Origin: Escherichia coli
GTDB taxonomy: Bacteria > Pseudomonadota > Gammaproteobacteria > Enterobacterales > Enterobacteriaceae
Direction: 5' to 3' (one strand)
NCBI RefSeq assembly: GCF_048403405.1
Contig: NZ_CP183129.1
DNA length: 64,000 nucleotides
How positions within the stretch are numbered: the stretch's first letter is position 1; the number at the start of each line of letters is the position of its first letter. Below, one piece after another: positions 1-13,526 of this stretch. The notes below the pieces were generated by a model. The model saw nothing but the letters and a program-made list of their open reading frames with translations, was not told where the DNA came from and did not search any database. The position numbers and the translations under genes are program-made.

Positions 1-370
1 GAATGTAGAAGAAAAATATTTCGATACCGTCCTGGCCGGACTGTGTGTGGGTTATGCCACCGAAAGACATGCGGGCACCAAAAAAGAGGTCTGCACCTGC
101 GTCGGCAATGTCGATTTACAGATGGGACGTGACCTGACAACCGTGCGTAAAGTCGTCGGATCCGGCGGATGGCTCTCGCGTGCCAGTCAGTTCGATATGC
201 ATCACTGGTTGAAATACCGCGAGTTAAACGACGACGGTAAACGCATTCTCTTACCGACCGAATTTGAATATTACCGCGATTCCCGGGGGCTATTACCACT
301 GCTGGCAAACGTCGCCAGAGTCGATCCGCTGGCCGCCGCGCGCACCAGTATTCAATGCTTAACCCTATAA
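1..370 (+). CDS. 5'-truncated CDS, probable glutamate mutase accessory component L (GlmL/MutL-like), C-terminal part
   Basis: Reading frame is open from window position 2 to the stop at 368-370; lies immediately upstream of the glmE-like gene as in known glmS-glmL-glmE operons; identity inferred from gene order, not from a recognised motif. Confidence 0.5.
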   Translation, partial: NVEEKYFDTVLAGLCVGYATERHAGTKKEVCTCVGNVDLQMGRDLTTVRKVVGSGGWLSRASQFDMHHWLKYRELNDDGKRILLPTEFEYYRDSRGLLPLLANVARVDPLAAARTSIQCLTL

Positions 371-388
371 CAATTAAGGCTGCAATCA

Positions 389-1834
389 ATGGAACTTCGA
401 AATAAGAAATTAACCCATGACGAATTCATGACCGAGCGGCAACAGGTACTGAAAACCTGGGAAACCGGCAAGGATGTTGAAAACTTTGAAGATGGCGTTA
501 AATACCAACAAACCATTCCTGAGCATAAACGCTTCTCTCTTGTGCTGTTGAAAGCAGACAAGGAAGGTAAAACCCTTAGCCAACCGCGCGCAGGTGTGGC
601 GCTGATGGACGAACACATCGAACTACTGAAAACACTACAAGAAGAGTGCGATCTGCTGCCGAGCACTATCGATGCATATACCCGTCTGAATCGGTACGAA
701 GAAGCGGCTGTAGGGATTAAAAAATCCATCGAAGCCGGAACCTCTAAACTGAACGGTTTACCGGTCGTTAACCACGGCGTCGCAGCTTGCCGTCGCCTCA
801 CCGAAACTTTGCAAAAACCGCTACAGATCCGCCACGGCACGCCAGATGCGCGTCTGCTGGCTGAAATCTCGATGTCCAGCGGCTTTACCAGTTATGAAGG
901 CGGCGGCATTTCCTACAATATTCCGTATGCCAAGCGCGTAACGCTGGAAAAATCGATCCGCGACTGGCAGTACTGCGACCGTTTAATGGGGATGTATGAA
1001 GAACACGGGATCCGCATCAACCGCGAACCGTTTGGCCCACTAACGGGTACGCTGATCCCGCCGTTTATCTCGCACTCTATCGCGATAATCGAAGGCTTGC
1101 TGGCGCTGGAACAGGGTGTGAAATCTATCACCGTTGGTTATGGACAGGTCGGCAGCCTGACGCAGGATGTTGCGGCGATCCAGTCTCTGCGTGAACTTGC
1201 ACACGAATATTTTCAGAGCTATGGCTATACCGACTATGAATTAAGTACCGTGTTTCACCAGTGGATGGGCGGCTTTCCGGAAGACGAATCGAAAGCGTTC
1301 GCTATTATCTCCTGGGGCGCAGCCGTCGCGGGGATGTCTGGTGCCACCAAAGTCATCACCAAAAGTCCGCACGAAGCCTGGGGTATCCCGACTGCCGCTG
1401 CCAACATTCAGGGGCTGAAAGCCTCCCGCCAGATGCTCAACATGGTCAACGAGCAGAAATTCCCGCCGTGCCCTGCGGTTGAACTGGAAATTGAACTGAT
1501 TAAGAGCGAGGTTCGCGCGGTACTGAATAAAGTGTTCGAACTGGGTAATGGTGATATTGCGCGCGGTACGGTGCTGGCATTTGAAGCGGGCGTACTGGAT
1601 GTGCCGTTTGCGCCAGCCGCCTGCAACGCGGGCAAAATTCTTCCGGTCCGTGACAACACCGGCGCGATACGCGTACTGGAAGCCGGAGCCGTTCCATTGC
1701 CAAAAGATATTCTCGACCTCCACCACGATTACGTTGCGGAACGCGCACGCTTTGAAGGACGCCAACCGACATTCCAGATGGTTGTAGATGACATCAATGC
1801 TGTATCCCACAGTAAATTAATAGGAAGACCATAA
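389..1834 (+). CDS. glmE: glutamate mutase epsilon (E) subunit, coenzyme B12-dependent methylaspartate mutase
   Basis: 481 aa ORF; N-terminus MELRNKKLTHDEF...PRAGVALMDEH resembles GlmE as I recall it; followed by methylaspartase with overlapping stop/start. Confidence 0.8.
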   Translation: MELRNKKLTHDEFMTERQQVLKTWETGKDVENFEDGVKYQQTIPEHKRFSLVLLKADKEGKTLSQPRAGVALMDEHIELLKTLQEECDLLPSTIDAYTRLNRYEEAAVGIKKSIEAGTSKLNGLPVVNHGVAACRRLTETLQKPLQIRHGTPDARLLAEISMSSGFTSYEGGGISYNIPYAKRVTLEKSIRDWQYCDRLMGMYEEHGIRINREPFGPLTGTLIPPFISHSIAIIEGLLALEQGVKSITVGYGQVGSLTQDVAAIQSLRELAHEYFQSYGYTDYELSTVFHQWMGGFPEDESKAFAIISWGAAVAGMSGATKVITKSPHEAWGIPTAAANIQGLKASRQMLNMVNEQKFPPCPAVELEIELIKSEVRAVLNKVFELGNGDIARGTVLAFEAGVLDVPFAPAACNAGKILPVRDNTGAIRVLEAGAVPLPKDILDLHHDYVAERARFEGRQPTFQMVVDDINAVSHSKLIGRP

Positions 1835-3075
1835 TGAAAATAAAACAGGCTCTGTTCACCGCTGGCTACTCCTCATTCTATTTCGATGACCAGCAGGCGA
1901 TAAAAAACGGAGCGGGTCACGACGGTTTTTTTTATACCGGGGAGCCGGTAACACAGGGGTTTAACGCCGTTCGTCAGGCCGGGGAGTGCGTATCGGTACA
2001 GTTGATTCTGGAAAACGGCGCGGTCGCCGTAGGTGACTGTGCTGCCGTACAGTATTCCGGGGCAGGTGGTCGCGATCCACTGTTCCTCGCAGAGCACTTT
2101 ATTCCGTTCCTCAACGACCATATCAAGCCATTACTGGTAGGCCGCGATGTGGATGCTTTCCTGCCGAATGCCCGTTTCTTCGACAAATTGCGTATTGACG
2201 GCAACTTGCTGCATACCGCCGTGCGCTACGGATTATCACAGGCGCTGCTTGATGCTACCGCGCTGGCAACCGGCCGTCTGAAAACTGAAGTGGTCTGTGA
2301 TGAATGGCAGTTGCCACGCGTGGCGGAATCCATTCCATTATTTGGTCAGAGCGGCGACGATCGATATATCGCCGTCGATAAGATGATCCTTAAGGGCATC
2401 GACGTGCTGCCCCATGCGCTGATTAATAACGTCGAAGAGAAGCTGGGCTTTAAAGGTGAAAAACTGCGCGAATATGTCCGCTGGCTGTCGGATCGTATTC
2501 TGAGCAAGCGCACCAGCGCACGCTACCACCCTACCCTGCACATCGATGTATACGGCACTATCGGTCTGATCTTCGATATGGATCCGCTTCGCTGTGCGCA
2601 ATACATCGCCAGCCTGGAAAAAGAAGCGCAAGGCCTGCCGCTCTACATTGAAGGGCCGGTCGATGCTGGTAACAAGCCCGATCAAATTCGCCTGCTGACC
2701 GCGATTACCAAAGAGCTGACACGCCTCGGTTCCGGCGTGAAAATTGTGGCCGATGAATGGTGTAACACCTACCAGGATATTGTTGATTTCACAGATGCCG
2801 CCAGTTGCCACATGGTGCAAATCAAAACCCCGGATCTGGGCAGTATTCACAACATCGTCGATGCGGTTCTTTACTGCAACAGCCACAGCATGGAAGCGTA
2901 CCAGGGCGGCACCTGCAATGAAACTGATGTCAGTGCCCGCACCTGTGTCCACGTCGCCCTTGCCGCTCGCCCTATGCGTATGCTGGTAAAGCCAGGGATG
3001 GGCTTTGACGAAGGCCTCGATATCGTCTTCAACGAAATGAATCGTACTATCGCGCTGTTGCAGGCTAAGGATTAA
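1834..3075 (+). CDS. 3-methylaspartate ammonia-lyase (beta-methylaspartase)
   Basis: 413 aa, the expected size for methylaspartase (enolase superfamily); start ATG overlaps the glmE stop (TAATG at 1832-1836). Confidence 0.8.
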   Translation: MKIKQALFTAGYSSFYFDDQQAIKNGAGHDGFFYTGEPVTQGFNAVRQAGECVSVQLILENGAVAVGDCAAVQYSGAGGRDPLFLAEHFIPFLNDHIKPLLVGRDVDAFLPNARFFDKLRIDGNLLHTAVRYGLSQALLDATALATGRLKTEVVCDEWQLPRVAESIPLFGQSGDDRYIAVDKMILKGIDVLPHALINNVEEKLGFKGEKLREYVRWLSDRILSKRTSARYHPTLHIDVYGTIGLIFDMDPLRCAQYIASLEKEAQGLPLYIEGPVDAGNKPDQIRLLTAITKELTRLGSGVKIVADEWCNTYQDIVDFTDAASCHMVQIKTPDLGSIHNIVDAVLYCNSHSMEAYQGGTCNETDVSARTCVHVALAARPMRMLVKPGMGFDEGLDIVFNEMNRTIALLQAKD

Positions 3076-3078
3076 CAA

Positions 3079-4449
3079 ATGGCTCGTTCTTTTAAAGTCT
3101 TATCGCCAACGGCAATCCTCGGGTATGGATTCCCGGAAGAGAGCTTCCGTAAAGCGATGGCAGAATCGCCCGATCTGATCGCCGTTGATGCAGGCTCTTC
3201 CGATCCTGGCCCCCACTACCTCGGGGCGGGCAAACCGTTTACCGATCGCGCAGGGGTCAAGCGCGATCTGCGCTATATGATCACCGCAGGCGTGCAAAAT
3301 AATATACCGGTGGTGATCGGAACGGCTGGCGGTTCTGGTGCCGCACCACACCTGGAGTGGTGCCGAGAAATAATTCATGAGATTGCCCAGGAAGAGCACC
3401 TCTCGTTCTCAATGGCGCTGATCCCGGCAGACGTTGACAAAGCCATCGTCCACCAGGCGCTGGATAACGGCAAAATCACGGCGCTGGAGTTTGTCCCGCC
3501 GTTAACCCACGACGCGATTGACGAAAGTACGTATATCGTTGCGCAAATGGGCATCGAACCCTTCCAGCGGGCGCTGAAAGAAGGCGCGCAAGTGGTGCTG
3601 GGCGGGCGCGCTTACGACCCGGCCTGCTTTGCTGCGCTTCCGATCATGCAAGGCTTTGATGAAGGTCTGGCGCTGCATTGTGGGAAAATCCTTGAATGCG
3701 CGGCAATCGCCGCAACGCCCGGCTCAGGCTCTGACTGTGCGATGGGCATCATTGATGACAACGGCTTTACGCTGAAGACATTTAATCCGAAGCGTAAATT
3801 TACCGAAACGTCAGCGGCTGCACACACACTGTATGAGAAATCCGATCCCTACTTCCTGCCTGGACCTGGCGGCGTGTTGAACCTGAAAGGCTGCACATTT
3901 AAAGCGGTCAATGACAGCGAAGTGTACGTCAGCGGTTCTAAGCATGAAGAAACGCCGTATGCCCTGAAACTGGAAGGTGCGCGACGAGTGGGCTTCCGCT
4001 GTCTGACCATCGCAGGAACGCGCGACCCGATCATGATCGCCGGGATCGATAAAATCATCGATGAAGTCAAAACCAGCGTTTCGCGTAACCTGTCGCTCGA
4101 CGATGACAGCATTCGCATCAATTTCCACCTGTACGGCAAAAACGGGGTGATGGGAGACCATGAACCGATGCAAACTGCCGGGCATGAGCTGGGGATTGTC
4201 CTTGATGTAGTTGCACCGACCCAGGAAATTGCCAACAGCGTTTGCTCGCTGGTGCGCTCTACCATGCTGCACTACGGCTATGAAAACCGCATCGCTACCG
4301 CAGGTAATCTGGCGTTCCCGTTCTCCCCTTCTGATATCCAGGGCGGGCCGGTATACGAATTTTCCATATATCACCTGATTGAAGCCAACGACGCTCTGCG
4401 TTTTGATTTCCATATTGAACAGGTGACGCCAGAAGGAGTTCAGGCATGA
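3079..4449 (+). CDS. uncharacterised protein, AtuA/DUF1446-like family (function unknown)
   Basis: 456 aa ORF 3 nt after the methylaspartase stop; family assignment from memory of AtuA-like proteins, unverified. Confidence 0.55.
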   Translation: MARSFKVLSPTAILGYGFPEESFRKAMAESPDLIAVDAGSSDPGPHYLGAGKPFTDRAGVKRDLRYMITAGVQNNIPVVIGTAGGSGAAPHLEWCREIIHEIAQEEHLSFSMALIPADVDKAIVHQALDNGKITALEFVPPLTHDAIDESTYIVAQMGIEPFQRALKEGAQVVLGGRAYDPACFAALPIMQGFDEGLALHCGKILECAAIAATPGSGSDCAMGIIDDNGFTLKTFNPKRKFTETSAAAHTLYEKSDPYFLPGPGGVLNLKGCTFKAVNDSEVYVSGSKHEETPYALKLEGARRVGFRCLTIAGTRDPIMIAGIDKIIDEVKTSVSRNLSLDDDSIRINFHLYGKNGVMGDHEPMQTAGHELGIVLDVVAPTQEIANSVCSLVRSTMLHYGYENRIATAGNLAFPFSPSDIQGGPVYEFSIYHLIEANDALRFDFHIEQVTPEGVQA

Positions 4450-4763
4450 AACAGTCAATTGTCTCACTGGCGCAAGTCATTCGTTCGAAAAATGCCGGAC
4501 CTTACGAACTGGTTTTAGATATTTTATTTAAAACCAAAGAAAACTATGAGCGTGTCAAATCATCAGGGCAATTAACCCCAGAACTGATCGCGCGCTTATA
4601 TCATGTTGAACCTGACTTTATTCATCGTATTGTCTGGTTTGATCCTTCTAACGCAGTAAAAATCGTCATGCCACGAGATATTATCTCCGGGAATGTAGGT
4701 GACAATGATGTCTATGGTGCACAGCAACATGCACCTTTATTAAATATGAGTTTCGATTTGTAA
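4446..4763 (+). CDS. small uncharacterised protein, DUF4387-like partner of AtuA-like proteins
   Basis: 105 aa ORF; start ATG overlaps the upstream stop (ATGA at 4446-4449), indicating translational coupling. Confidence 0.5.
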   Translation: MKQSIVSLAQVIRSKNAGPYELVLDILFKTKENYERVKSSGQLTPELIARLYHVEPDFIHRIVWFDPSNAVKIVMPRDIISGNVGDNDVYGAQQHAPLLNMSFDL

Positions 4764-4923
4764 AAATCCGAATACTTTTAGCCAACTGACATCCCGTCAC
4801 TTATTGCAGTTCAACACTTCAGCTATTTGTAAGGTTGTAATAGCAGGTAGATGCCTGAATCTCTATTCGGGCATCTACTTCTCCTGATTCTGATTTATCG
4901 CCGTGCACCTGATGGAGGAAAAA

Positions 4924-6204
4924 ATGAAGAAAATAAGTTTAACCACGATGATTCTTTTGGCGCTGGTACTTGGAATGATTATCGGCGTAGTGCTCAATAA
5001 CACTGCTTCACCGGAAACCGAAAAACTCTATGCGCAAGAAATATCGATATTCACGACGATTTTCTTACGACTGATAAAAATGATTATCGCTCCGTTAGTG
5101 GTCTCTACCCTGGTGGTAGGTATAGCTAAAATGGGCGATGCCAAAGCCCTTGGTCGTATTTTTTCTAAAACACTCTTTTTATTTATTTGCGCCTCATTGC
5201 TGTCAATTGCCTTAGGCTTGATAACAGTAAATTTCTTCATGCCAGGCACAGGAATTAATTTTGTTGCACACGGAGCCGAAACCACCGGAGTGGTCGCGTC
5301 AGAACCCTTTACGCTAAAAGTATTTATTTCGCATGCTTTCCCCACCAGCATTGTCGATGCCATGGCGCACAATGAAATTTTGCAAATCGTGGTGTTCTCA
5401 ATTTTCCTCGGCTGTAGCCTGACGGCGATTGGCGAGAAAGGCAGCGCCATCGTTCACGCCTTAGATTCGCTGGCACATGCCATGTTAAAGCTCACTGGCT
5501 ACGTCATGCTCTTCGCTCCCCTGACCGTATTCGCTGCTATTTCAGCATTGATTGCTGAACGAGGACTGGCAGTTATGGTGAGCGCCGGGATCTTTATGGG
5601 TGAATTTTATTTCACCATGTTATTACTTTGGGTGCTGCTTATCGGTCTGGCCATCGTTTATGTTGGCCCCTGCATCAGACGCCTGACCCGCGCCCTTTCG
5701 GAACCCGCCCTGCTGGCATTTACCACATCCAGTTCTGAAGCGGCTTTTCCGGGAACGCTTGAAAAACTGGAGCAATTTGGCGTTTCCCCCAAAATTGCCA
5801 GCTTTGTCTTACCCATTGGCTACTCATTTAATCTTGTTGGATCAATGGCCTACTGCTCCTTCGCCACAGTTTTCATCGCCCAGGCCTGCAATATCCATTT
5901 ATCCATCGGTGAGCAAATCACCATGCTGTTGATCCTGATGTTGACCTCGAAAGGAATGGCTGGCGTACCACGCGCCTCAATGGTGGTTATCGCCGCCACG
6001 CTCAACCAGTTCAATATTCCGGAAGCGGGGCTGATCTTGCTGATGGGCGTTGATCCGTTCCTTGATATGGGGCGTTCCGCGACAAACGTCATGAGCAACG
6101 CAATGGGCGCTGCGATGGTGAGTCGGTGGGAAGGCGAACATTTCGGCGAGGGTTGTCGGGGTAAAGCATTAAAACCCAATGAATCGAACGTTGCTCTGCC
6201 CTGA
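4924..6204 (+). CDS. sodium:dicarboxylate symporter family transporter (glutamate/aspartate or C4/C5-dicarboxylate:cation symporter-like)
   Basis: About 426 aa, highly hydrophobic multi-helix protein; GGAGG 5 nt upstream of the ATG at 4924 (longest ORF begins at 4903). Confidence 0.75.
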   Translation: MKKISLTTMILLALVLGMIIGVVLNNTASPETEKLYAQEISIFTTIFLRLIKMIIAPLVVSTLVVGIAKMGDAKALGRIFSKTLFLFICASLLSIALGLITVNFFMPGTGINFVAHGAETTGVVASEPFTLKVFISHAFPTSIVDAMAHNEILQIVVFSIFLGCSLTAIGEKGSAIVHALDSLAHAMLKLTGYVMLFAPLTVFAAISALIAERGLAVMVSAGIFMGEFYFTMLLLWVLLIGLAIVYVGPCIRRLTRALSEPALLAFTTSSSEAAFPGTLEKLEQFGVSPKIASFVLPIGYSFNLVGSMAYCSFATVFIAQACNIHLSIGEQITMLLILMLTSKGMAGVPRASMVVIAATLNQFNIPEAGLILLMGVDPFLDMGRSATNVMSNAMGAAMVSRWEGEHFGEGCRGKALKPNESNVALP

Positions 6205-6311
6205 GGGGGATCTTAAGCAATCAGAAGCCAATGACTACGCATTTTTATAAGCCGGATCATGAAGTTAGACGGCAATTAAGTAAAACTAACGTTTAAGGTG
6301 AAAAGTGAAAT

Positions 6312-7964
6312 ATGTCCAAACCATTTATCTGGCAAGAACCGTTTCTACAAAATAAAGACGGTACAGAATATACATTAATTAGCGATCAACATATTACAGT
6401 AACGGAATTAGACGGCGAAGAAGTAATAAAAATCGCTCCTGAAGCATTAACGCTGCTTGCCCGGCAGGCATTTTATGAAGCCTCTTTTTTCTTACGTTCC
6501 GCTCATTTGCAACAGGTCGCCAGCATTCTTAACGATCCGCAGGCCAGTAGTAATGATAAATACGTTGCGTTGCAGTTATTACGTAATGCTGAAGTCTCAG
6601 CAAAAGGGGTATTACCCAACTGTCAGGATACCGGCACCGCAACTATTGTTGCCAGTAAAGGGCAACAGATATGGACGGGAGGTAACGACGCTGAAGCCTT
6701 AAGCAAAGGCATTTACAGTACTTTCCAGGAAAATAACCTGCGCTTTTCACAAAATGCGCCGCTGGATATGTACACCGAAGTCAATACGCAAACCAATCTC
6801 CCGGCGCAGATTGATATCAGCGCTGTCGCTGGTGATGAGTACCATTTTCTCTGTATTAATAAAGGGGGCGGCTCTGCCAATAAAGCCGCGCTTTATCAGG
6901 AAACCAAATCCTTATTGCAACCAGAAAAACTGACCGCATTTTTAATCGAAAAAATGAAATCGCTGGGCACCGCTGCCTGCCCGCCTTACCACATCGCCTT
7001 TGTCGTCGGAGGGCTTTCAGCCGATCAAACCTTAAAAGTTGCCAAGCTGGCCTCAACGAAATATTACGACAATTTGCCCACCAGCGGAAACGAGCAAGGA
7101 CAAGCATTCCGTGATATTGAGCTGGAAAAAGTATTGCTCGAGGCCAGTCAGCAATTTGGTATTGGTGCGCAATTTGGAGGTAAATATTTCGCTCATGATA
7201 TTCGCGTCATTCGTCTGCCGCGTCACGGTGGCTCCTGCCCGATAGCTATGGCGCTCTCCTGTTCTGCCGATCGCAATATCAAAGCAAAAATTAACAAGCA
7301 CGGTATCTGGCTGGAAAAACTCGAACACAATCCGGGGCAATATATTCCAGCCTCACTGCGGGAAGAAAATCACGCGCAACATGTACAACTGGATCTAAAC
7401 CGTCCGTTGCGTGACGTGATGCAGGATCTCGCCAGATTACCGGTAGGCACCCGCGTGTCGTTAAGTGGTCCCATCGTAGTGGCACGCGATATCGCCCACG
7501 CCAAAATAAAAGCGCGGCTGGATAACGCCGAACCGATGCCGGATTACCTGAAGCATCATATTGTCTATTACGCTGGCCCGGCGAAAACACCGGAGAACAT
7601 GGCCTGCGGTTCACTGGGTCCAACCACGGGCGGTCGAATGGACGGTTATGTCGATACCTTCCAGGCGGCTGGCGGCAGTCTGGTGATGTTATCGAAAGGT
7701 AACCGCAGCCAGCAGGTCACCGATGCCTGTCACAAACATGGTGGCTTCAATCTGGGTAGTATTGGCGGTGCAGCTGCGTTACTGGCGCAAGAATATGTCA
7801 AAAGTCTGCGTTGCCTGGAATACCCGGAGCTGGGTATGGAAGCGGTGTGGATGATGGAAGTGGAAAATCTGCCCGCATTCATCCTGGTAGATGATAAAGG
7901 CAATAATTTCTTTAGTCAGTTTGAGCAGCAACACCGCTGCGCCAGTTGCCCTGCGGGACATTAA
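6312..7964 (+). CDS. fumD: class I fumarate hydratase family protein, probable mesaconase/fumarase (FumD-like)
   Basis: 550 aa, FumA/FumB-like length; C-terminal Cys-rich tail; located in the methylaspartate operon. Confidence 0.75.
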
Positions 7965-7973
7965 GGAAAATGA

Positions 7974-8576
7974 ATGGAAGCGCGAATTTCAACTGAACGG
8001 CATGTGCAGCGCCAGCAGAAATTGAAGGAACAGGTCGATACGCGCGTCGCGGCGGCGATAGAGAAAAAAGGGATTTTGATTGTTTTCACCGGCAATGGCA
8101 AAGGGAAATCCACTGCCGCGTTTGGTACTGTGACGCGCGCGGTGGGTCATGGCAAAACGGTGGGGGTTGCGCAGTACATCAAGGGGCAATGGGACAACGG
8201 CGAATACAACCTTCTCCAGCCGCTGGGGGTTGAGTTTCATATTATGGGAACCGGTTTTACCTGGGAGACACAGAACCGGCAAGCGGATATCGACGCGGCG
8301 AAAGAGGTCTGGTCGGAAAGCAAACGGATGCTGGCTGACAAGCGTTACGACTTAGTGGTGCTTGATGAGCTGACCTATATGCTGGCTTACCATTATCTGG
8401 ACACCGAAGAAGTGATCGCTTCTCTGCAAAACCGCCCGGCACAACAAAGTGTCATTGTCACCGGACGCGGTTGCCACAGTCAGATATTAAAAATGGCGGA
8501 TACGGTCAGCGAAATCCGCCCCGTCAAACATGCTTTTGATAACGGCATTCAGGCGCAGCCGGGTATCGACTGGTAA
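7974..8576 (+). CDS. corrinoid (cob(I)alamin) adenosyltransferase, BtuR/CobO-family paralog
   Basis: 200 aa with P-loop-like FTGNGKGKSTAAFG motif; close resemblance to E. coli BtuR (about 196 aa) as recalled. Confidence 0.8.
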   Translation: MEARISTERHVQRQQKLKEQVDTRVAAAIEKKGILIVFTGNGKGKSTAAFGTVTRAVGHGKTVGVAQYIKGQWDNGEYNLLQPLGVEFHIMGTGFTWETQNRQADIDAAKEVWSESKRMLADKRYDLVVLDELTYMLAYHYLDTEEVIASLQNRPAQQSVIVTGRGCHSQILKMADTVSEIRPVKHAFDNGIQAQPGIDW

Positions 8577-8609
8577 TAACTGCGCCTGGCATCCCGCCAG
8601 GCGCAGGTT

Positions 8610-9515
8610 TTACATCTCCTGCGGTACGACCGATTTCGCCAGCAACCATTCACGAAATTGCTGCAAGTGCGGCGAGTCAGACTTCTCTTCCTGCCACGTC
8701 ATAATAAAACGATTACCGGTACGAATAGGCACATCACAGGGAATCACCATATCGCCACTATCCAAATCATGTTGAATAGCGAACCGTGGTAACAGCGCCA
8801 CGCCGAGATTAGAGCGCACGGCGGCAATCAGCATTGAAAGCAAATCGAAACGTGGTCCGTTATTGACCAGCGGACTGCTAACGCCAGATAAAGCAAACCA
8901 CTCTTCCCAGCCAGTAATACGGGTGCTTTGATGCAGAAGTGGTAACTCAGTAAGCAGTTCTGCCACTGACAGTTTTTGATCGGACATTGCAAGCAAACTG
9001 CCGCTGCATACCGGCAAAATCTCCTCATCAAAGAGATATTCTACTTCCGCCCAGGGCGCGCAAAAATTTTCGCGCATAATGACAGCATCGTACTCCCGAT
9101 TAAGAAAATCGCCGTTATTAGCTAAAGAATGAATATTAACAATAATATCGGGATGTAACTTTGTGAATTCATGTAAATTTGGGATTAACCAGTGGGTACT
9201 AAAAGTAGGATTAACGGCAAGTTCAATAACCTGAACCGTAGGCTGCCAGGTCATAATGGTATTGGTATCGCGTTCCAGCTTATTTAATGTTTCTTTTACT
9301 ATCCCCAGGTAATACTTCCCTGCATCATTAAGAAAAATACGTTTTTTAGAGTGTGAAAATAACGGAGTATGTAAAAATTCCTCCAGCGCACTCACTTGTC
9401 TGAATACAGCACTTTGGGTTAACGCTAACTCCTCTGCCGCTCTGGTATAACTTTCATGACGTGCGACGACCTCAAAAGTCACCAGCAGCTCCGTTTTAGG
9501 TATTTTTCCTCGCAT
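8610..9515 (-). CDS. LysR-family transcriptional regulator
   Basis: 301 aa; N-terminal helix-turn-helix (LVTFEVVARHESYTRAAEELALTQSAVFRQVSALE) plus a substrate-binding-domain-sized C-terminus. Confidence 0.85.
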   Translation of the reverse strand: MRGKIPKTELLVTFEVVARHESYTRAAEELALTQSAVFRQVSALEEFLHTPLFSHSKKRIFLNDAGKYYLGIVKETLNKLERDTNTIMTWQPTVQVIELAVNPTFSTHWLIPNLHEFTKLHPDIIVNIHSLANNGDFLNREYDAVIMRENFCAPWAEVEYLFDEEILPVCSGSLLAMSDQKLSVAELLTELPLLHQSTRITGWEEWFALSGVSSPLVNNGPRFDLLSMLIAAVRSNLGVALLPRFAIQHDLDSGDMVIPCDVPIRTGNRFIMTWQEEKSDSPHLQQFREWLLAKSVVPQEM

Positions 9516-10080
9516 AATGCCGTCCCTTAAAAATAGTTTAAACCATCAAAAATACATTACTTATTACGAAGTAATGGTAACCAAAGCAGCAATAAATAAT
9601 TTATAAGAATCATGATTGACATTTATAACCCAGTAAGCCTGGCGTGACAAATATCTTAATCAGATAATAATAATCCGAAAAGCACAGCGCCTTTCGAATT
9701 ATCCGGAATCACATTAAGTGAAAATTATTAAATTGATATCATTTATCATATCTGTGGATATTATGATAAACAATCAACAAAGATTTTATTTTTGATTTAT
9801 AGCATATCCCTCTAAGAATTTTTGCGATGCTGCAATATCCGGGTAAAGACCCGATCCTGGCTGACAAATGGCACGACTTGACGATAAGCGGTGAACATCG
9901 CTTTTGTTGATTTACTTAACGCTACGGTCAAACGCTGGGAAGCCAGTGCATCAGGTAACGATTCGAAATTCGCCGTCGTTCTTATTCGTGGCTTGCGGTC
10001 GGTTGCGGCAATCCACAGTGGCTGTGGTCATGCAGTCAAGCCAGCGGTCAGATTTCGACCGTGGTTAACATTTAAGGCAT

Positions 10081-10179
10081 AAAAAAGGCCATCATACGAT
10101 GGCCAACCATGTCGAAACCGACAGCCCTTCGCCATTCCTGTAGAGGGAAGCGGCGAGGGCTATTTCTTATTACAGATAT
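10081..10179 (-). ncRNA. sdhX: 3'UTR-derived small RNA SdhX (RybD) at the end of the sdh-suc operon, with intrinsic terminator
   Basis: Lies immediately 3' of the sucD stop on the minus strand; ends in hairpin GGCCATCGTATGATGGCC followed by a T-run (plus strand 10081-10104); identity recalled from E. coli K-12. Confidence 0.5.
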
Positions 10180-11049
10180 TTATTTCAGAACAGTTTTCAG
10201 TGCTTCACCGATATCCGCCAGGCTGCGAACGGTTTTCACGCCTGCGGCTTCCAGAGCAGCGAATTTCTCATCCGCAGTCCCTTTTCCACCGGCAATGATC
10301 GCACCCGCGTGGCCCATACGTTTGCCTTTCGGCGCAGTCACACCAGCGATGTAACCCACAACAGGCTTGGTAACGTGCTCTTTGATGTACGCAGCCGCTT
10401 CTTCTTCAGCGCTACCGCCGATCTCACCGATCATCACGATCGCTTCGGTCTGCGGATCTTTTTCGAACATTTCGAGGATGTCGATAAAGTTAGAGCCAGG
10501 GATCGGGTCGCCGCCGATACCAACACAGGTCGACTGACCGAAACCGTAATCCGTGGTCTGTTTCACCGCTTCATAGGTCAGTGTACCGGAACGGGAAACG
10601 ATACCCACTTTACCCGGTTTGTGAATGTGACCAGGCTGGATACCGATTTTGCATTCACCCGGAGTGATAACGCCTGGGCAGTTCGGGCCGATCATGCGAA
10701 CGCCCGCTTCATCCAGTTTCACCTTCACGGTCAGCATATCCAGCGTCGGGATGCCTTCAGTGATGGTGATAATCAGTTTGATGCCTGCATCAATAGCTTC
10801 CAGAATGGAGTCTTTGCAGAACGGTGCTGGTACGTAGATAACAGAAGCGGTAGCGCCAGTAGCAGCAACAGCTTCACGCACGGTGTTGAACACCGGCAGG
10901 CCGAGGTGGGTGGTGCCGCCTTTACCTGGGGTTACGCCGCCAACCATTTTAGTGCCGTATGCAATGGCCTGTTCTGAGTGGAAAGTCCCCTGGCTACCGG
11001 TAAAGCCCTGGCAGATAACCTTGGTGTTTTTATCAATTAAAATGGACAT
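10180..11049 (-). CDS. sucD: succinyl-CoA synthetase alpha subunit
   Basis: 289 aa; [33 protein letters not shown]; canonical operon position. Confidence 0.96.
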
Positions 11050-12215
11050 TATTTCCCCTCCACTGCGGCAACAACCTGCTGAGCTGCATCCGTCAGACCT
11101 TTTGCTGCAATAATATTCAGGCCGCTGTCAGCCAGTTTCTTCGCGCCGAGTTCGGCGTTGTTACCTTCCAGACGTACCACGACCGGTACGTTAACACCCA
11201 CTTCCGCTACCGCGCCGATGATACCGTCAGCGATCAGGTCGCAACGAACGATACCGCCGAAGATGTTAACCAGAACGGCTTTCACTTTGTCGTCAGAGAG
11301 GATGATTTTGAACGCTTCGGTTACACGTTCTTTGGTTGCGCCGCCGCCAACGTCAAGGAAGTTAGCTGGTTCGCCGCCGTGCAGTTTAACGATGTCCATC
11401 GTACCCATCGCCAGACCTGCGCCGTTAACCATACAACCGATGTTACCGTCCAGCGCAACGTAGTTCAGTTCCCACTGTGCAGCCTGTGCTTCACGTGGAT
11501 CTTCCTGCGACTGGTCACGCATTTCGCGCAGATCAGGCTGGCGGAACAGTGCGTTGCCATCAGCGCCCAGTTTGCCGTCGAGGCAAATCAGATCGCCCTG
11601 TTTGGTGATGACCAGCGGGTTGATTTCGATCAGCGCCAGGTCGCGCTCCAGGAAAATGGTCGCCAGGCCCATGAAGATTTTGGTGAACTGCTGAACCAGT
11701 TTACCTTCCAGACCCAGTTTGAACGCCAGCTCGCGTCCCTGATACGGCATCGGGCCAGTCAGCGGATCAAGCGCAACTTTGTGGATCAGGTGCGGAGTTT
11801 CTTCCGCCACTTTTTCGATTTCCACGCCGCCTTCGGTGGAGGCCATAAAGACCACACGACGGGAACTACGGTCAACAACGGCACCGAGATACAGCTCTTT
11901 AGCGATATCGGTCGCTGCTTCAACCAGAATCTGGTTAACCGGTTGGCCATTGGCATCTGTTTGATACGTTACCAGACGCTTGCCCAGCCAGTTTTCTGCA
12001 AAAGCACGGATGTCTTCTTTGCTGTTTACAACTTTCACACCGCCCGCTTTACCGCGGCCACCAGCGTGAACCTGACATTTCACTACCCACGGACCGGCAC
12101 CGATTTTTGAAGCGGCTTCTTCTGCTTCGCGCGGAGTAGTACAGGCATAACCCACCGGTGCTGGTAAGCCATAGCGGGCAAAAAGTTGTTTTGCCTGATA
12201 TTCATGTAAGTTCAT
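11049..12215 (-). CDS. sucC: succinyl-CoA synthetase beta subunit
   Basis: 388 aa; [18 protein letters not shown]; stop overlaps the sucD start. Confidence 0.96.
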
Positions 12216-12254
12216 GTGTTCTGTCCATCCTTCAGTAATCGTTATCTTTTAAAC

Positions 12255-12286
12255 CGTAGACCGACACCCTATCCACGTCGGTCTAC
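12255..12286 (-). other. 10-bp perfect inverted repeat (RNA stem-loop) in the sucB-sucC intergenic region
   Basis: GTAGACCGAC...GTCGGTCTAC with an 11-nt loop, between the sucB stop and the sucC start. Confidence 0.5.
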
Positions 12287-12308
12287 AGTGCAGGTGAAGC
12301 TTAAACTA

Positions 12309-13526
12309 CTACACGTCCAGCAGCAGACGCGTCGGATCTTCCAGCAACTCTTTGATCGTTACCAGGAAGCCCACGGATTCGCGACCATCGATCAGACGGT
12401 GATCGTAGGACAGCGCCAGGTACATCATCGGCAGGATCTCAACCTGACCATTCACCGCCATCGGACGATCTTTGATAGCGTGCATACCCAGAATTGCGCT
12501 CTGCGGCGGGTTGATGATCGGCGTAGACATCAGGGAACCGAACACACCACCGTTGGTGATGGTGAAGTTACCACCGGTCAGATCTTCAACCGTCAGCTTG
12601 CCGTCACGGCCTTTAACTGCCAGCTCTTTGATTTTCTTCTCGATGTCTGCCATGCCTAGGGTATCGACATCACGCAGTACCGGCGTCACCAGGCCGCGCG
12701 GCGTAGAAACCGCCATGCTGACGTCGAAATAGTTGTGGTAAACCACATCATCGCCGTCGATAGACGCGTTCACTTCCGGGTAACGTTTCAGGGCTTCAAC
12801 CACCGCTTTCACGTAGAAGGACATAAAGCCCAGACGAATACCGTGACGTTTTTCAAACGCTTCACCGTACTGCTTACGCAGATCCATAATCGGCTTCATG
12901 TTGACTTCGTTGAACGTGGTCAGCATAGCGGTGGAGTTTTTCGCTTCCAGCAGACGCTCTGCCACACGCTTACGCAGGCGAGTCATCGGGACACGTTTTT
13001 CGCTACGTGCAGCCAGAGCCGGTTGCGCCGCCGGAGCAGCCGCTGCCGGAGCAGACTCTTTCGCCGGGGCTTTCGCCAGATGTTTTTCCACATCTTCACG
13101 AGTCAGACGACCACCCACACCGGTGCCTTTAATGGCGCTGGCGTCGAGGTTGTGTTCAGCCAGCAGGCGACGGATCGCCGGGCTTAACGCATCGTTGTTT
13201 TGCTCTTCCAGAGACGCCTGCTGGCGTTGCGCCGGAGTGGACGCTTTCTCTTCAGATTTGGCGCTGGTTTCTTTACCGGCGCTGTTGCCTTCACGCAGGC
13301 GACCAAGGATCTGACGAGACGTTACCGTTGTACCTTCATCTTCCAGAACCGCATCCAGAATGCCGTCTGCTGATGCCGGTACTTCCAGTACCACTTTGTC
13401 AGTTTCGATTTCTACCAGCACTTCATCACGTACGACTGCGTCGCCGGGTTTTTTATGCCAGGTTGCGACGGTGGCATCGGCTACGGATTCAGGCAGGTCA
13501 GGGACCAGAATATCTACGCTACTCAT
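12309..13526 (-). CDS. sucB: 2-oxoglutarate dehydrogenase E2 (dihydrolipoyl succinyltransferase)
   Basis: 405 aa; lipoyl domain and Ala/Pro-rich linker. Confidence 0.96.

Follow-up and report, generated by a model that had tools for sequence, protein, structure and literature searches.

A glutamate-transporter family carrier co-inherited with the glutamate mutase-methylaspartase island of Escherichia coli: a probable proton-coupled importer of acidic amino acids

The gene at positions 4924 to 6204 of the window, by which is meant the whole 64,000-nucleotide stretch of Escherichia coli DNA analysed here, encodes a real and well conserved membrane carrier of the glutamate-transporter family. 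Its fold and substrate-binding residues are those of the family, and it is strictly co-inherited with the glutamate mutase and methylaspartase genes (glm-mal). From its binding-site residues and its neighbours, we infer the identity of the substrate, the coupling to H+ and the direction of uptake. With a probability of roughly 60%, the carrier takes up glutamate or a glutamate-like compound with H+ and feeds the glutamate mutase/methylaspartase/FumD route, perhaps accepting aspartate and 3-methylaspartate as well. In the proposed mechanism, the carrier would be a homotrimeric elevator in which the transport domain of each protomer binds an acidic amino acid between HP1, TM7, HP2 and TM8, with D381, R384, N388, S307 and S385 as candidate ligands, and brings it into the cell along with at least one proton; the candidate site of protonation is E272. 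L-glutamate would be the probable physiological substrate and, once imported, would enter the B12-dependent glutamate mutase/methylaspartase/FumD route encoded on both sides of the gene. The carrier is already present in annotation and in the literature, and the residue-level reading is the sole addition made here.

The gene and its neighbours are laid out in the window as follows.

389 to 3075, plus strand: glmE (389-1834; TIGR01503, 863 bits) and the methylaspartate ammonia-lyase gene mal (1834-3075; TIGR01502, 544 bits).
3079 to 4763, plus strand: an AtuA-family gene (3079-4449; PF07287) and an overlapping DUF4387 gene (4446-4763; PF14330).
4914 to 4918, plus strand: Shine-Dalgarno-like GGAGG with a 5-nt gap to the carrier ATG, from reading of the sequence.
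4924 to 6204, plus strand: coding sequence of the 426-residue SDF/DAACS-family carrier, stop included (ORF list, sequence, PF00375, WP_000724208.1).
6312 to 7964, plus strand: fumD, a class I mesaconase/fumarase (NF011921, 1284 bits; biochemistry in PMC4682846).
7974 to 8576, plus strand: cobO, a corrinoid adenosyltransferase (NF004637, 296 bits).
8610 to 9515, minus strand: a LysR-family regulator, convergent with cobO (PF00126 and PF03466).

The plus-strand ORF spans 4903 to 6204, and within it the carrier starts at the in-frame ATG at 4924 and ends with TGA at 6202-6204. In the Shine-Dalgarno region, the letters GATGGAG are invariant or nearly so across 18 aligned spacers. RefSeq annotates exactly the same coding sequence in an identical genome as WP_000724208.1, a 'dicarboxylate/amino acid:cation symporter', and several complete E. 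coli chromosomes match the 6.6-kb stretch around the gene at 100% identity. Among orthologues at 74-89% identity, dN/dS is 0.03-0.07 by the Nei-Gojobori method, with dS saturated. Two antisense ORFs within the gene (5028-5450 and 5850-6179) were set aside as purely mechanical and without support. A consensus scan found no plus-strand sigma-70 promoter of the carrier's own. Terminator-like sites at the gene are weak and no more numerous than expected from shuffles, with no canonical terminator among them.

An earlier note made from the letters alone had described a polytopic membrane protein of about 426 residues, lying between an unassigned gene pair and a mesaconase, and had assigned it to the dicarboxylate/amino-acid:cation symporters. 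Both the placement and the family hold: the flanking genes are the AtuA-family/DUF4387 pair and FumD, and the Pfam SDF profile (PF00375) matches the carrier from end to end at 343.1 bits (E = 2.8e-102; cut-off 27.9), with profile positions 1-387 of 387 aligned to residues 6-402. All 45 of the sequence matches in the PDB are glutamate-transporter homologues. The carrier is thus a member of the DAACS/SDF family (TC 2.A.23). An AlphaFold2 model built from a 49-sequence alignment (pLDDT 86.7, pTM 0.84) is predicted to adopt the GltPh-type fold of eight helices and two re-entrant hairpins. Compared by Foldseek, the model matches inward-facing GltPh with TM-scores of 0.81-0.86 and an rmsd of about 2.5-3.5 A; its TM-score to outward-facing structures is only about 0.5 because of the elevator movement.

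Within this family, the carrier scores below the NCBIfam cut-offs for GltP (NF008440, 303.4 bits against 638), for the two DctA subfamily models (NF002461 and NF009587, 312.7 and 275.2 bits against 513 and 570) and for the serine/threonine transporter SstT (NF010151, 67.9 bits against 308), so it cannot be equated with any named E. coli paralogue. In a neighbour-joining tree, its Enterobacterales clade is monophyletic on a long branch and is joined first by a sister group and then by GltP, with the DctA-type proteins outside. Judged from these sequence comparisons, the carrier belongs to the proton-type bacterial branch, where it is an orthologous group of its own with GltP as a closer relative than DctA.

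The island that carries the gene lies between cydAB and sucABCD in the reference genome, in the order glmSLE-mal-AtuA-DUF4387-SDF-fumD-cobO/lysR, and the GlmL C-terminus precedes glmE in the window. A literature search found no functional study of DUF4387/DUF1446. The carrier gene occurs in 1123 of 5426 complete E. coli genomes and glmE-mal in 1131; the O157:H7 carrier is 99.2% identical. The earlier description of the carrier as dedicated to the island is borne out by the near-complete copies, found in 1121 E. coli genomes for the carrier and in 1121 for glmE-mal, and by its position in other species. In a scan of one genome per species, with orthologues defined by at least 73% identity, 54 orthologous loci were found, all in Enterobacterales, and the island proteins were run against them by tblastn. 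At 48 of these loci, glmE and/or mal stand directly upstream on the same strand, accompanied by the AtuA and DUF4387 genes in 47 of the 48. Five others are a second copy in Morganella, a Morganella-specific paralogue in the tree, which stands first in an SDF-fumD-cobO...lysR block some 36 kb away from the other copy. The last, in Trabulsiella, is isolated beside IS66 fragments and a truncated aminotransferase gene. Within the 10 kb examined, fumD was not found near the carrier in Yersinia, Hafnia, Budvicia or Morganella copy A, so that fumD is the looser partner of the carrier and the glm-mal-AtuA-DUF4387 module the closer one. Citrobacter, Enterobacter and several other genera have one more gene, about 1.1 kb long, between the carrier and fumD. 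At the one locus scanned, that of Citrobacter amalonaticus, it encodes a glutaminase (PF04960, 354 bits), which matches the 'GlsA' in the figure of Kronen & Berg (PMC4682846). A glutaminase beside the carrier points to glutamate as the entry metabolite. Around relatives of 46-57% identity, no island genes were found.

To read the binding site, residue numbers were fixed by a gapless HMMER alignment of the carrier with GltPh, in which carrier residues 86-110 correspond to GltPh 88-112, residues 262-366 to 269-373 and residues 367-404 to 380-417. The segments concerned are listed below.

5191 to 5196, plus strand: TM3 residues A90-S91, corresponding to GltPh T92-S93 (HMMER alignment, column statistics).
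5725 to 5739, plus strand: HP1 tip TSSSE, residues 268-272 (alignments; PMC12668577).
5827 to 5844, plus strand: TM7 motif FNLVGS, residues 302-307, equivalent to GltPh N310-M311-D312-G313-T314 (alignments).
5947 to 5979, plus strand: HP2 tip SKGMAGVPRAS, residues 342-352, with R350 at the position of GltPh G357 (alignments, cluster representatives).
6052 to 6099, plus strand: TM8 motif DPFLDMGRSATNVMSN, residues 377-392 (alignments; PMC12668577, PMC2151622).

Four motifs were looked for as marks of the family, namely the Ser-rich tip of HP1, N-x-x-G in TM7, AGVP in HP2 and D...D..R...N in TM8. The carrier has them as TSSSE, NLVGS, AGVPRAS and DPFLDMGRSATN, respectively, and its single departure from the family is a Val at the position of Asp312. 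In TM8, D381 and R384 correspond to D394 and R397 of GltPh, the ligands of the amino group and of the side-chain carboxylate; further equivalences are N388 with N401, S307 with T314 and S385 with T398. Reddy et al. 2025 (PMC12668577) assign the same two contacts to D394 and R397 and state that D394 sets specificity against dicarboxylates and R397 against neutral amino acids. D381 and R384 are invariant at 54 of 54 orthologous loci, the pattern of an acidic-amino-acid type. In DctA proteins, the equivalents of 394, 395 and 398 are Ser, Glu and Ala (Teichman & Kanner, PMC2151622). The carrier reads LDMGRS in this stretch and GltP reads LDMART, while E. coli DctA and all DctA-like loci examined read MSEARA. 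Since the carrier has Asp, Met and Ser at the three positions that distinguish DctA, together with Arg397, an acidic alpha-amino acid is favoured as substrate, with glutamate, aspartate and 3-methylaspartate fitting the sequence alike, and mesaconate and citramalate are disfavoured. Of the substrates that the earlier note had offered, uptake of glutamate or 3-methylaspartate thus stands as the favoured option on the strength of Asp394, Arg397 and Ser398, and export of mesaconate or citramalate loses ground with the DctA residues missing.

That the protein might nevertheless serve as a C4/C5-dicarboxylate carrier for the export or import of mesaconate or citramalate is very improbable. Such a role would suit the unresolved fate of citramalate in E. 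coli, in which no citramalate lyase activity was found (PMC4682846), the second Morganella copy that adjoins fumD-cobO, and the top NCBIfam score, which belongs to a DctA subfamily model (313 bits against 303 for GltP). That score is far under its cut-off, however, and the carrier is 40% identical to GltP against 34% to DctA and branches with GltP. All 54 orthologous loci keep Asp394 and none has the Ser/Glu/Ala of DctA, the fumD-linked Morganella copy included.

Among the acidic amino acids, glutamate is the probable substrate because the genes co-inherited with the carrier encode glutamate mutase, its reactivase GlmL, methylaspartase and a corrinoid adenosyltransferase. Since E. coli takes up glutamate by other systems as well, the need for a dedicated carrier is not obvious. 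It is conceivable, though unlikely, that the carrier is specific for L-threo-3-methylaspartate or aspartate instead of glutamate, with entry at methylaspartase or through the fumarase activity of FumD. The binding-site residues suit any acidic alpha-amino acid, archaeal homologues that share these ligands transport aspartate but not glutamate, and FumD is also a good fumarase (PMC4682846). The closer tie of the carrier to glm-mal than to fumD likewise agrees with entry at methylaspartase. On the other hand, only glutamate as the point of entry would call for the glutamate mutase, GlmL and corrinoid adenosyltransferase that travel with the carrier, and in many genera the carrier probably adjoins a glutaminase gene. 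Nor is 3-methylaspartate known as an abundant nutrient.

Kronen & Berg 2015 (PMC4682846) characterised FumD and drew the carrier gene in their Fig. 5 as 'GltP, glutamate transporter'; for O157:H7, they found no conditions for expression of the cluster or for anaerobic growth on glutamate, a result that speaks against the main reading. A transport assay of the carrier or of any close relative was not found in the literature, and a search by the Sakai locus tags ECs0752-0763 returned nothing on the carrier.

Turning to the coupling ion, the proton-type clade (Ext-H) of Reddy et al. 2025 is marked by A, L, I, V, M or F at position 92, L311 and N405, and has its putative protonation site at E279 (PMC12668577). 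The carrier has this signature in full: A90 at the former Na3 site, L304, N392 in place of D405, and E272, which aligns with S279 of GltPh. Na+-coupled members (GltPh, GltTk and the EAATs) have S or T at 92-93, N310, M or S at 311, and D or E at both 312 and 405, positions at which the carrier reads A, S, N, L, V and N. With the full proton-type signature and without the set of Na+-site residues, H+ coupling is the best inference, and the 'cation' of the carrier is most likely H+ and not Na+.

The remaining feature is V305, the Val in place of the conserved Asp of the NMD motif, which could change the coupling. The motif is NLVGS at 54 of 54 orthologous loci (73-100% identity), compared with NLDGS in GltP, NLDGT in DctA and NMDGT in GltPh. 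Different genera use different codons for V305 (GTT, GTC, GTG and GTA), so the residue is held by selection. The sister clade, at 46-57% identity, keeps Asp at 312. Between the island clade and the sister clade, 19 positions are fixed differently, among them GltPh positions 82, 88, 312, 391, 404 and 408, and several of the 19 lie near the former Na1 and Na3 sites; position 391 is Pro in the island clade, His in the sister clade and Arg in GltP and DctA. The HP2 motif GVPRAS, with Arg at the position of GltPh G357, is common to the sister clade and to 61 of 100 related cluster representatives at 50% identity.

From these substitutions, one could argue that the loss of Asp312, combined with the changes near the former Na1 and Na3 sites, has turned the protein into a weakly coupled facilitator or a substrate/product exchanger in place of a concentrative symporter. 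The invariance of V305 throughout the island clade beside an Asp in the sister clade would fit, as would the inclusion of positions 88, 312, 391, 404 and 408 among the clade-fixed differences. Ancestral reconstruction has yielded a family member shown to be uncoupled (PMC12668577), and that ancestral protein is the carrier's best sequence match in the PDB. We consider this quite improbable: the putative protonation site E279 and the remaining proton-type residues are intact, and 27 of 97 well-aligned related cluster representatives have no acidic residue at 312, so that the loss is common, and a Na3 site that is already defunct probably makes it tolerable. The same 27 representatives, which carry V, T, I, A, C, S and others, led us to drop V305 as a unique hallmark of the island carrier. 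A link between loss of Asp312 and either HP2 Arg357 or a basic residue at 391 was weak (Fisher p = 0.066 each, uncorrected for phylogeny) and was dropped. We accordingly regard V305 as a natural variant that recurs among proton-type carriers.

Upstream of the carrier, the gap that follows the DUF4387 gene contains two further features.

4764 to 4923, plus strand: a 160-nt spacer between the DUF4387 gene and the carrier, a probable structured leader or intercistronic region (fold, alignment).
4846 to 4879, plus strand: a predicted 15-bp stem-loop, GGUAGAUGCCUGAAU-CUCU-AUUCGGGCAUCUACU, followed by a U-rich stretch (fold, covariation).

The 167-nt stretch 4764-4930 has a predicted folding energy of -41.9 kcal/mol (z = -2.2). 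Other genera have a comparably strong hairpin of different sequence, with z between -3 and -10 against shuffles in 10 of 11 genera tested. In the alignment of 18 sequences, both partners vary in 14 of 16 stem pairs, and pairing is kept in 94% of cells; the observed covariation was reached in 0 of 500 shuffles, and slid controls pair at 29-43%. Plus-strand G-U pairs are frequent in the stem and A-C cells are very few, which points to an RNA structure on the sense transcript. A T-run after the stem, resembling an intrinsic terminator, is present in Yersinia, Hafnia and Budvicia and absent in Citrobacter. The hairpin is unannotated, and an Rfam scan of positions 1-10200 at E <= 1 returned no riboswitch or known RNA. 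A dispersed REP-like repeat was considered and rejected, the hairpin being single-copy per genome and confined to island-bearing genomes.

Base composition also shifts along the island. GC content is 52.5-55% in glmE, mal and the AtuA gene and lower in the DUF4387 gene (39%), the carrier (48.6%), fumD (49%) and lysR (44.6%), with cobO (53%) an exception among the downstream genes. The Morganella island is likewise split at the spacer ahead of the carrier. Together, the hairpin, the GC shift and the Morganella split hint that a second expression unit may begin at the carrier, or that the carrier may be turned down in comparison with the enzymes encoded upstream. That the carrier is a natural coupling variant, through Val312 and the changes at 88, 391, 404 and 408, and is also expressed separately by means of the spacer RNA is a small chance. 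If true, the H+:substrate ratio would be lower, or the carrier would work by exchange, and either would suit the anaerobic gut, where energy is scarce. Both the effect of the invariant Val on ion coupling and the question of whether the conserved hairpin splits the island into two expression units would be worth a bench test.

Taken on their own, the residues of the carrier suggest an acidic amino acid as the compound that the island imports. The idea that these pathogens and commensals can pass glutamate from the gut along a B12-dependent route agrees with this. The gain is modest since the gene had already been annotated and pictured as a glutamate transporter.

Among known systems, the 'GltP' in Fig. 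5 of Kronen & Berg 2015 is the same gene in the same cluster, its name there coming from annotation alone. The nearest relatives outside the island are the HP2-Arg sister clade (Chitinophaga, Zymomonas and proteobacterial MAGs; 46-57% identity), of which no characterised member was found. They share GVPRAS and DMGRSATN with the carrier, but have Asp312 (NLDGS) where the island carrier has Val, and occur in mixed contexts without island genes nearby. As a clue to substrate, these contexts were too heterogeneous to use, with an Asp/Glu racemase-family gene directly upstream in one MAG only. The archaeal Na+:aspartate symporters GltPh and GltTk, at about 30% identity, share the fold and the substrate ligands, whereas their T92, M311, D312 and D405 are A, L, V and N in the carrier, which makes Na+ coupling unlikely. 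E. coli DctA, the C4-dicarboxylate/orotate:H+ symporter (b3528; 34% identity), has the same proton-type signature and the same TSSSE in HP1, yet it differs in the substrate site, with Ser394/Glu395/Ala398 and GVTGSG in HP2 against Asp/Met/Ser and GVPRAS in the carrier (PMC2151622). The closest characterised paralogue is E. coli GltP, the glutamate/aspartate:H+ symporter (b4077; 40% identity), which resembles the carrier in fold, in the proton-type signature (a hydrophobic residue at 92, L311, N405 and E279) and in the substrate ligands D394, R397, N401 and Ser at 314 and 359. The two differ at 312 (Val in the carrier, Asp in GltP), 357 (Arg, Gly), 391 (Pro, Arg) and 398 (Ser, Thr), and in their place in the genome: GltP is encoded in the core genome, whereas the carrier belongs to a catabolic island that about 21% of E. 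coli genomes have.

GC content differs from gene to gene along the island (window 4446-9515). The DUF4387 gene (39% GC), lysR (44.6%), the SDF-family carrier gene (48.6%) and fumD (49%) form its lower end, while glmE, mal and the AtuA-family gene reach 52.5-55%; the suc genes next to the island are at 53-56%. Among the complete E. coli genomes, the carrier is at least 99% identical to the window in 931 of 1124 records, whereas glmE-mal attains that level in only 160 of 1132. This difference suggests allelic mosaicism or recombination inside the island. In the same collection, one of roughly 1120 island occurrences lies on a record classed as plasmid, and one genome holds two island copies.

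Two features lie upstream of the carrier gene:

3079-4763, overlapping AtuA-family (PF07287) and DUF4387 genes
4846-4879, a conserved, covariation-supported RNA stem-loop in the DUF4387-to-carrier spacer (4764-4923)

Of the 48 glm/mal-linked loci, 47 contain the AtuA-family and DUF4387 genes together with glm-mal and the carrier, and these two genes may encode the pathway's missing step. Neither gene of the window pair matched an NCBIfam model, and a functional study of such genes was not found in the literature. The stem-loop occurs once per genome, carries no annotation, and is found across Enterobacterales genera with differing primary sequence; Citrobacter-type sequences add a further helix upstream of it. 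A scan of window 1-10200 against Rfam (E <= 1) matched no family to it. Its candidate roles are leaky termination, mRNA stabilisation, or serving as the carrier gene's leader.

Downstream of the carrier, many genera have a glutaminase gene before fumD. It was identified (PF04960) at 11455-12588 of one scanned locus, L009, and an equivalent 1.1-kb gap separates carrier and fumD in most Citrobacter, Enterobacter and Buttiauxella loci. E. coli has no glutaminase gene here, and its carrier-fumD spacer measures 107 nt.

A 7.3-kb contig of a MAG labelled Collinsella sp. (JAIJJM010000101.1) holds mal-AtuA-DUF4387-SDF-fumD-cobO, with proteins 98-100% identical to those of E. coli; it is almost certainly binning contamination. 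Across the 54 Enterobacterales loci scanned, the sole orthologue found without a nearby island gene is that of Trabulsiella odontotermitis. Since it adjoins IS66 transposase fragments and a truncated aminotransferase, it is probably the remnant of a rearranged island. In Morganella, the island is divided into halves some 36 kb apart (L035-L041 versus L042-L047; for example, on contig NZ_NRQY01000001.1), one comprising glmE-mal-AtuA-DUF4387-SDF and the other a second carrier (SDF') with fumD-cobO...lysR. Each half has its own carrier paralogue, at 78% and 74% identity to the E. coli protein and with identical motif residues, and the neighbour-joining tree places this duplication specifically in Morganella.
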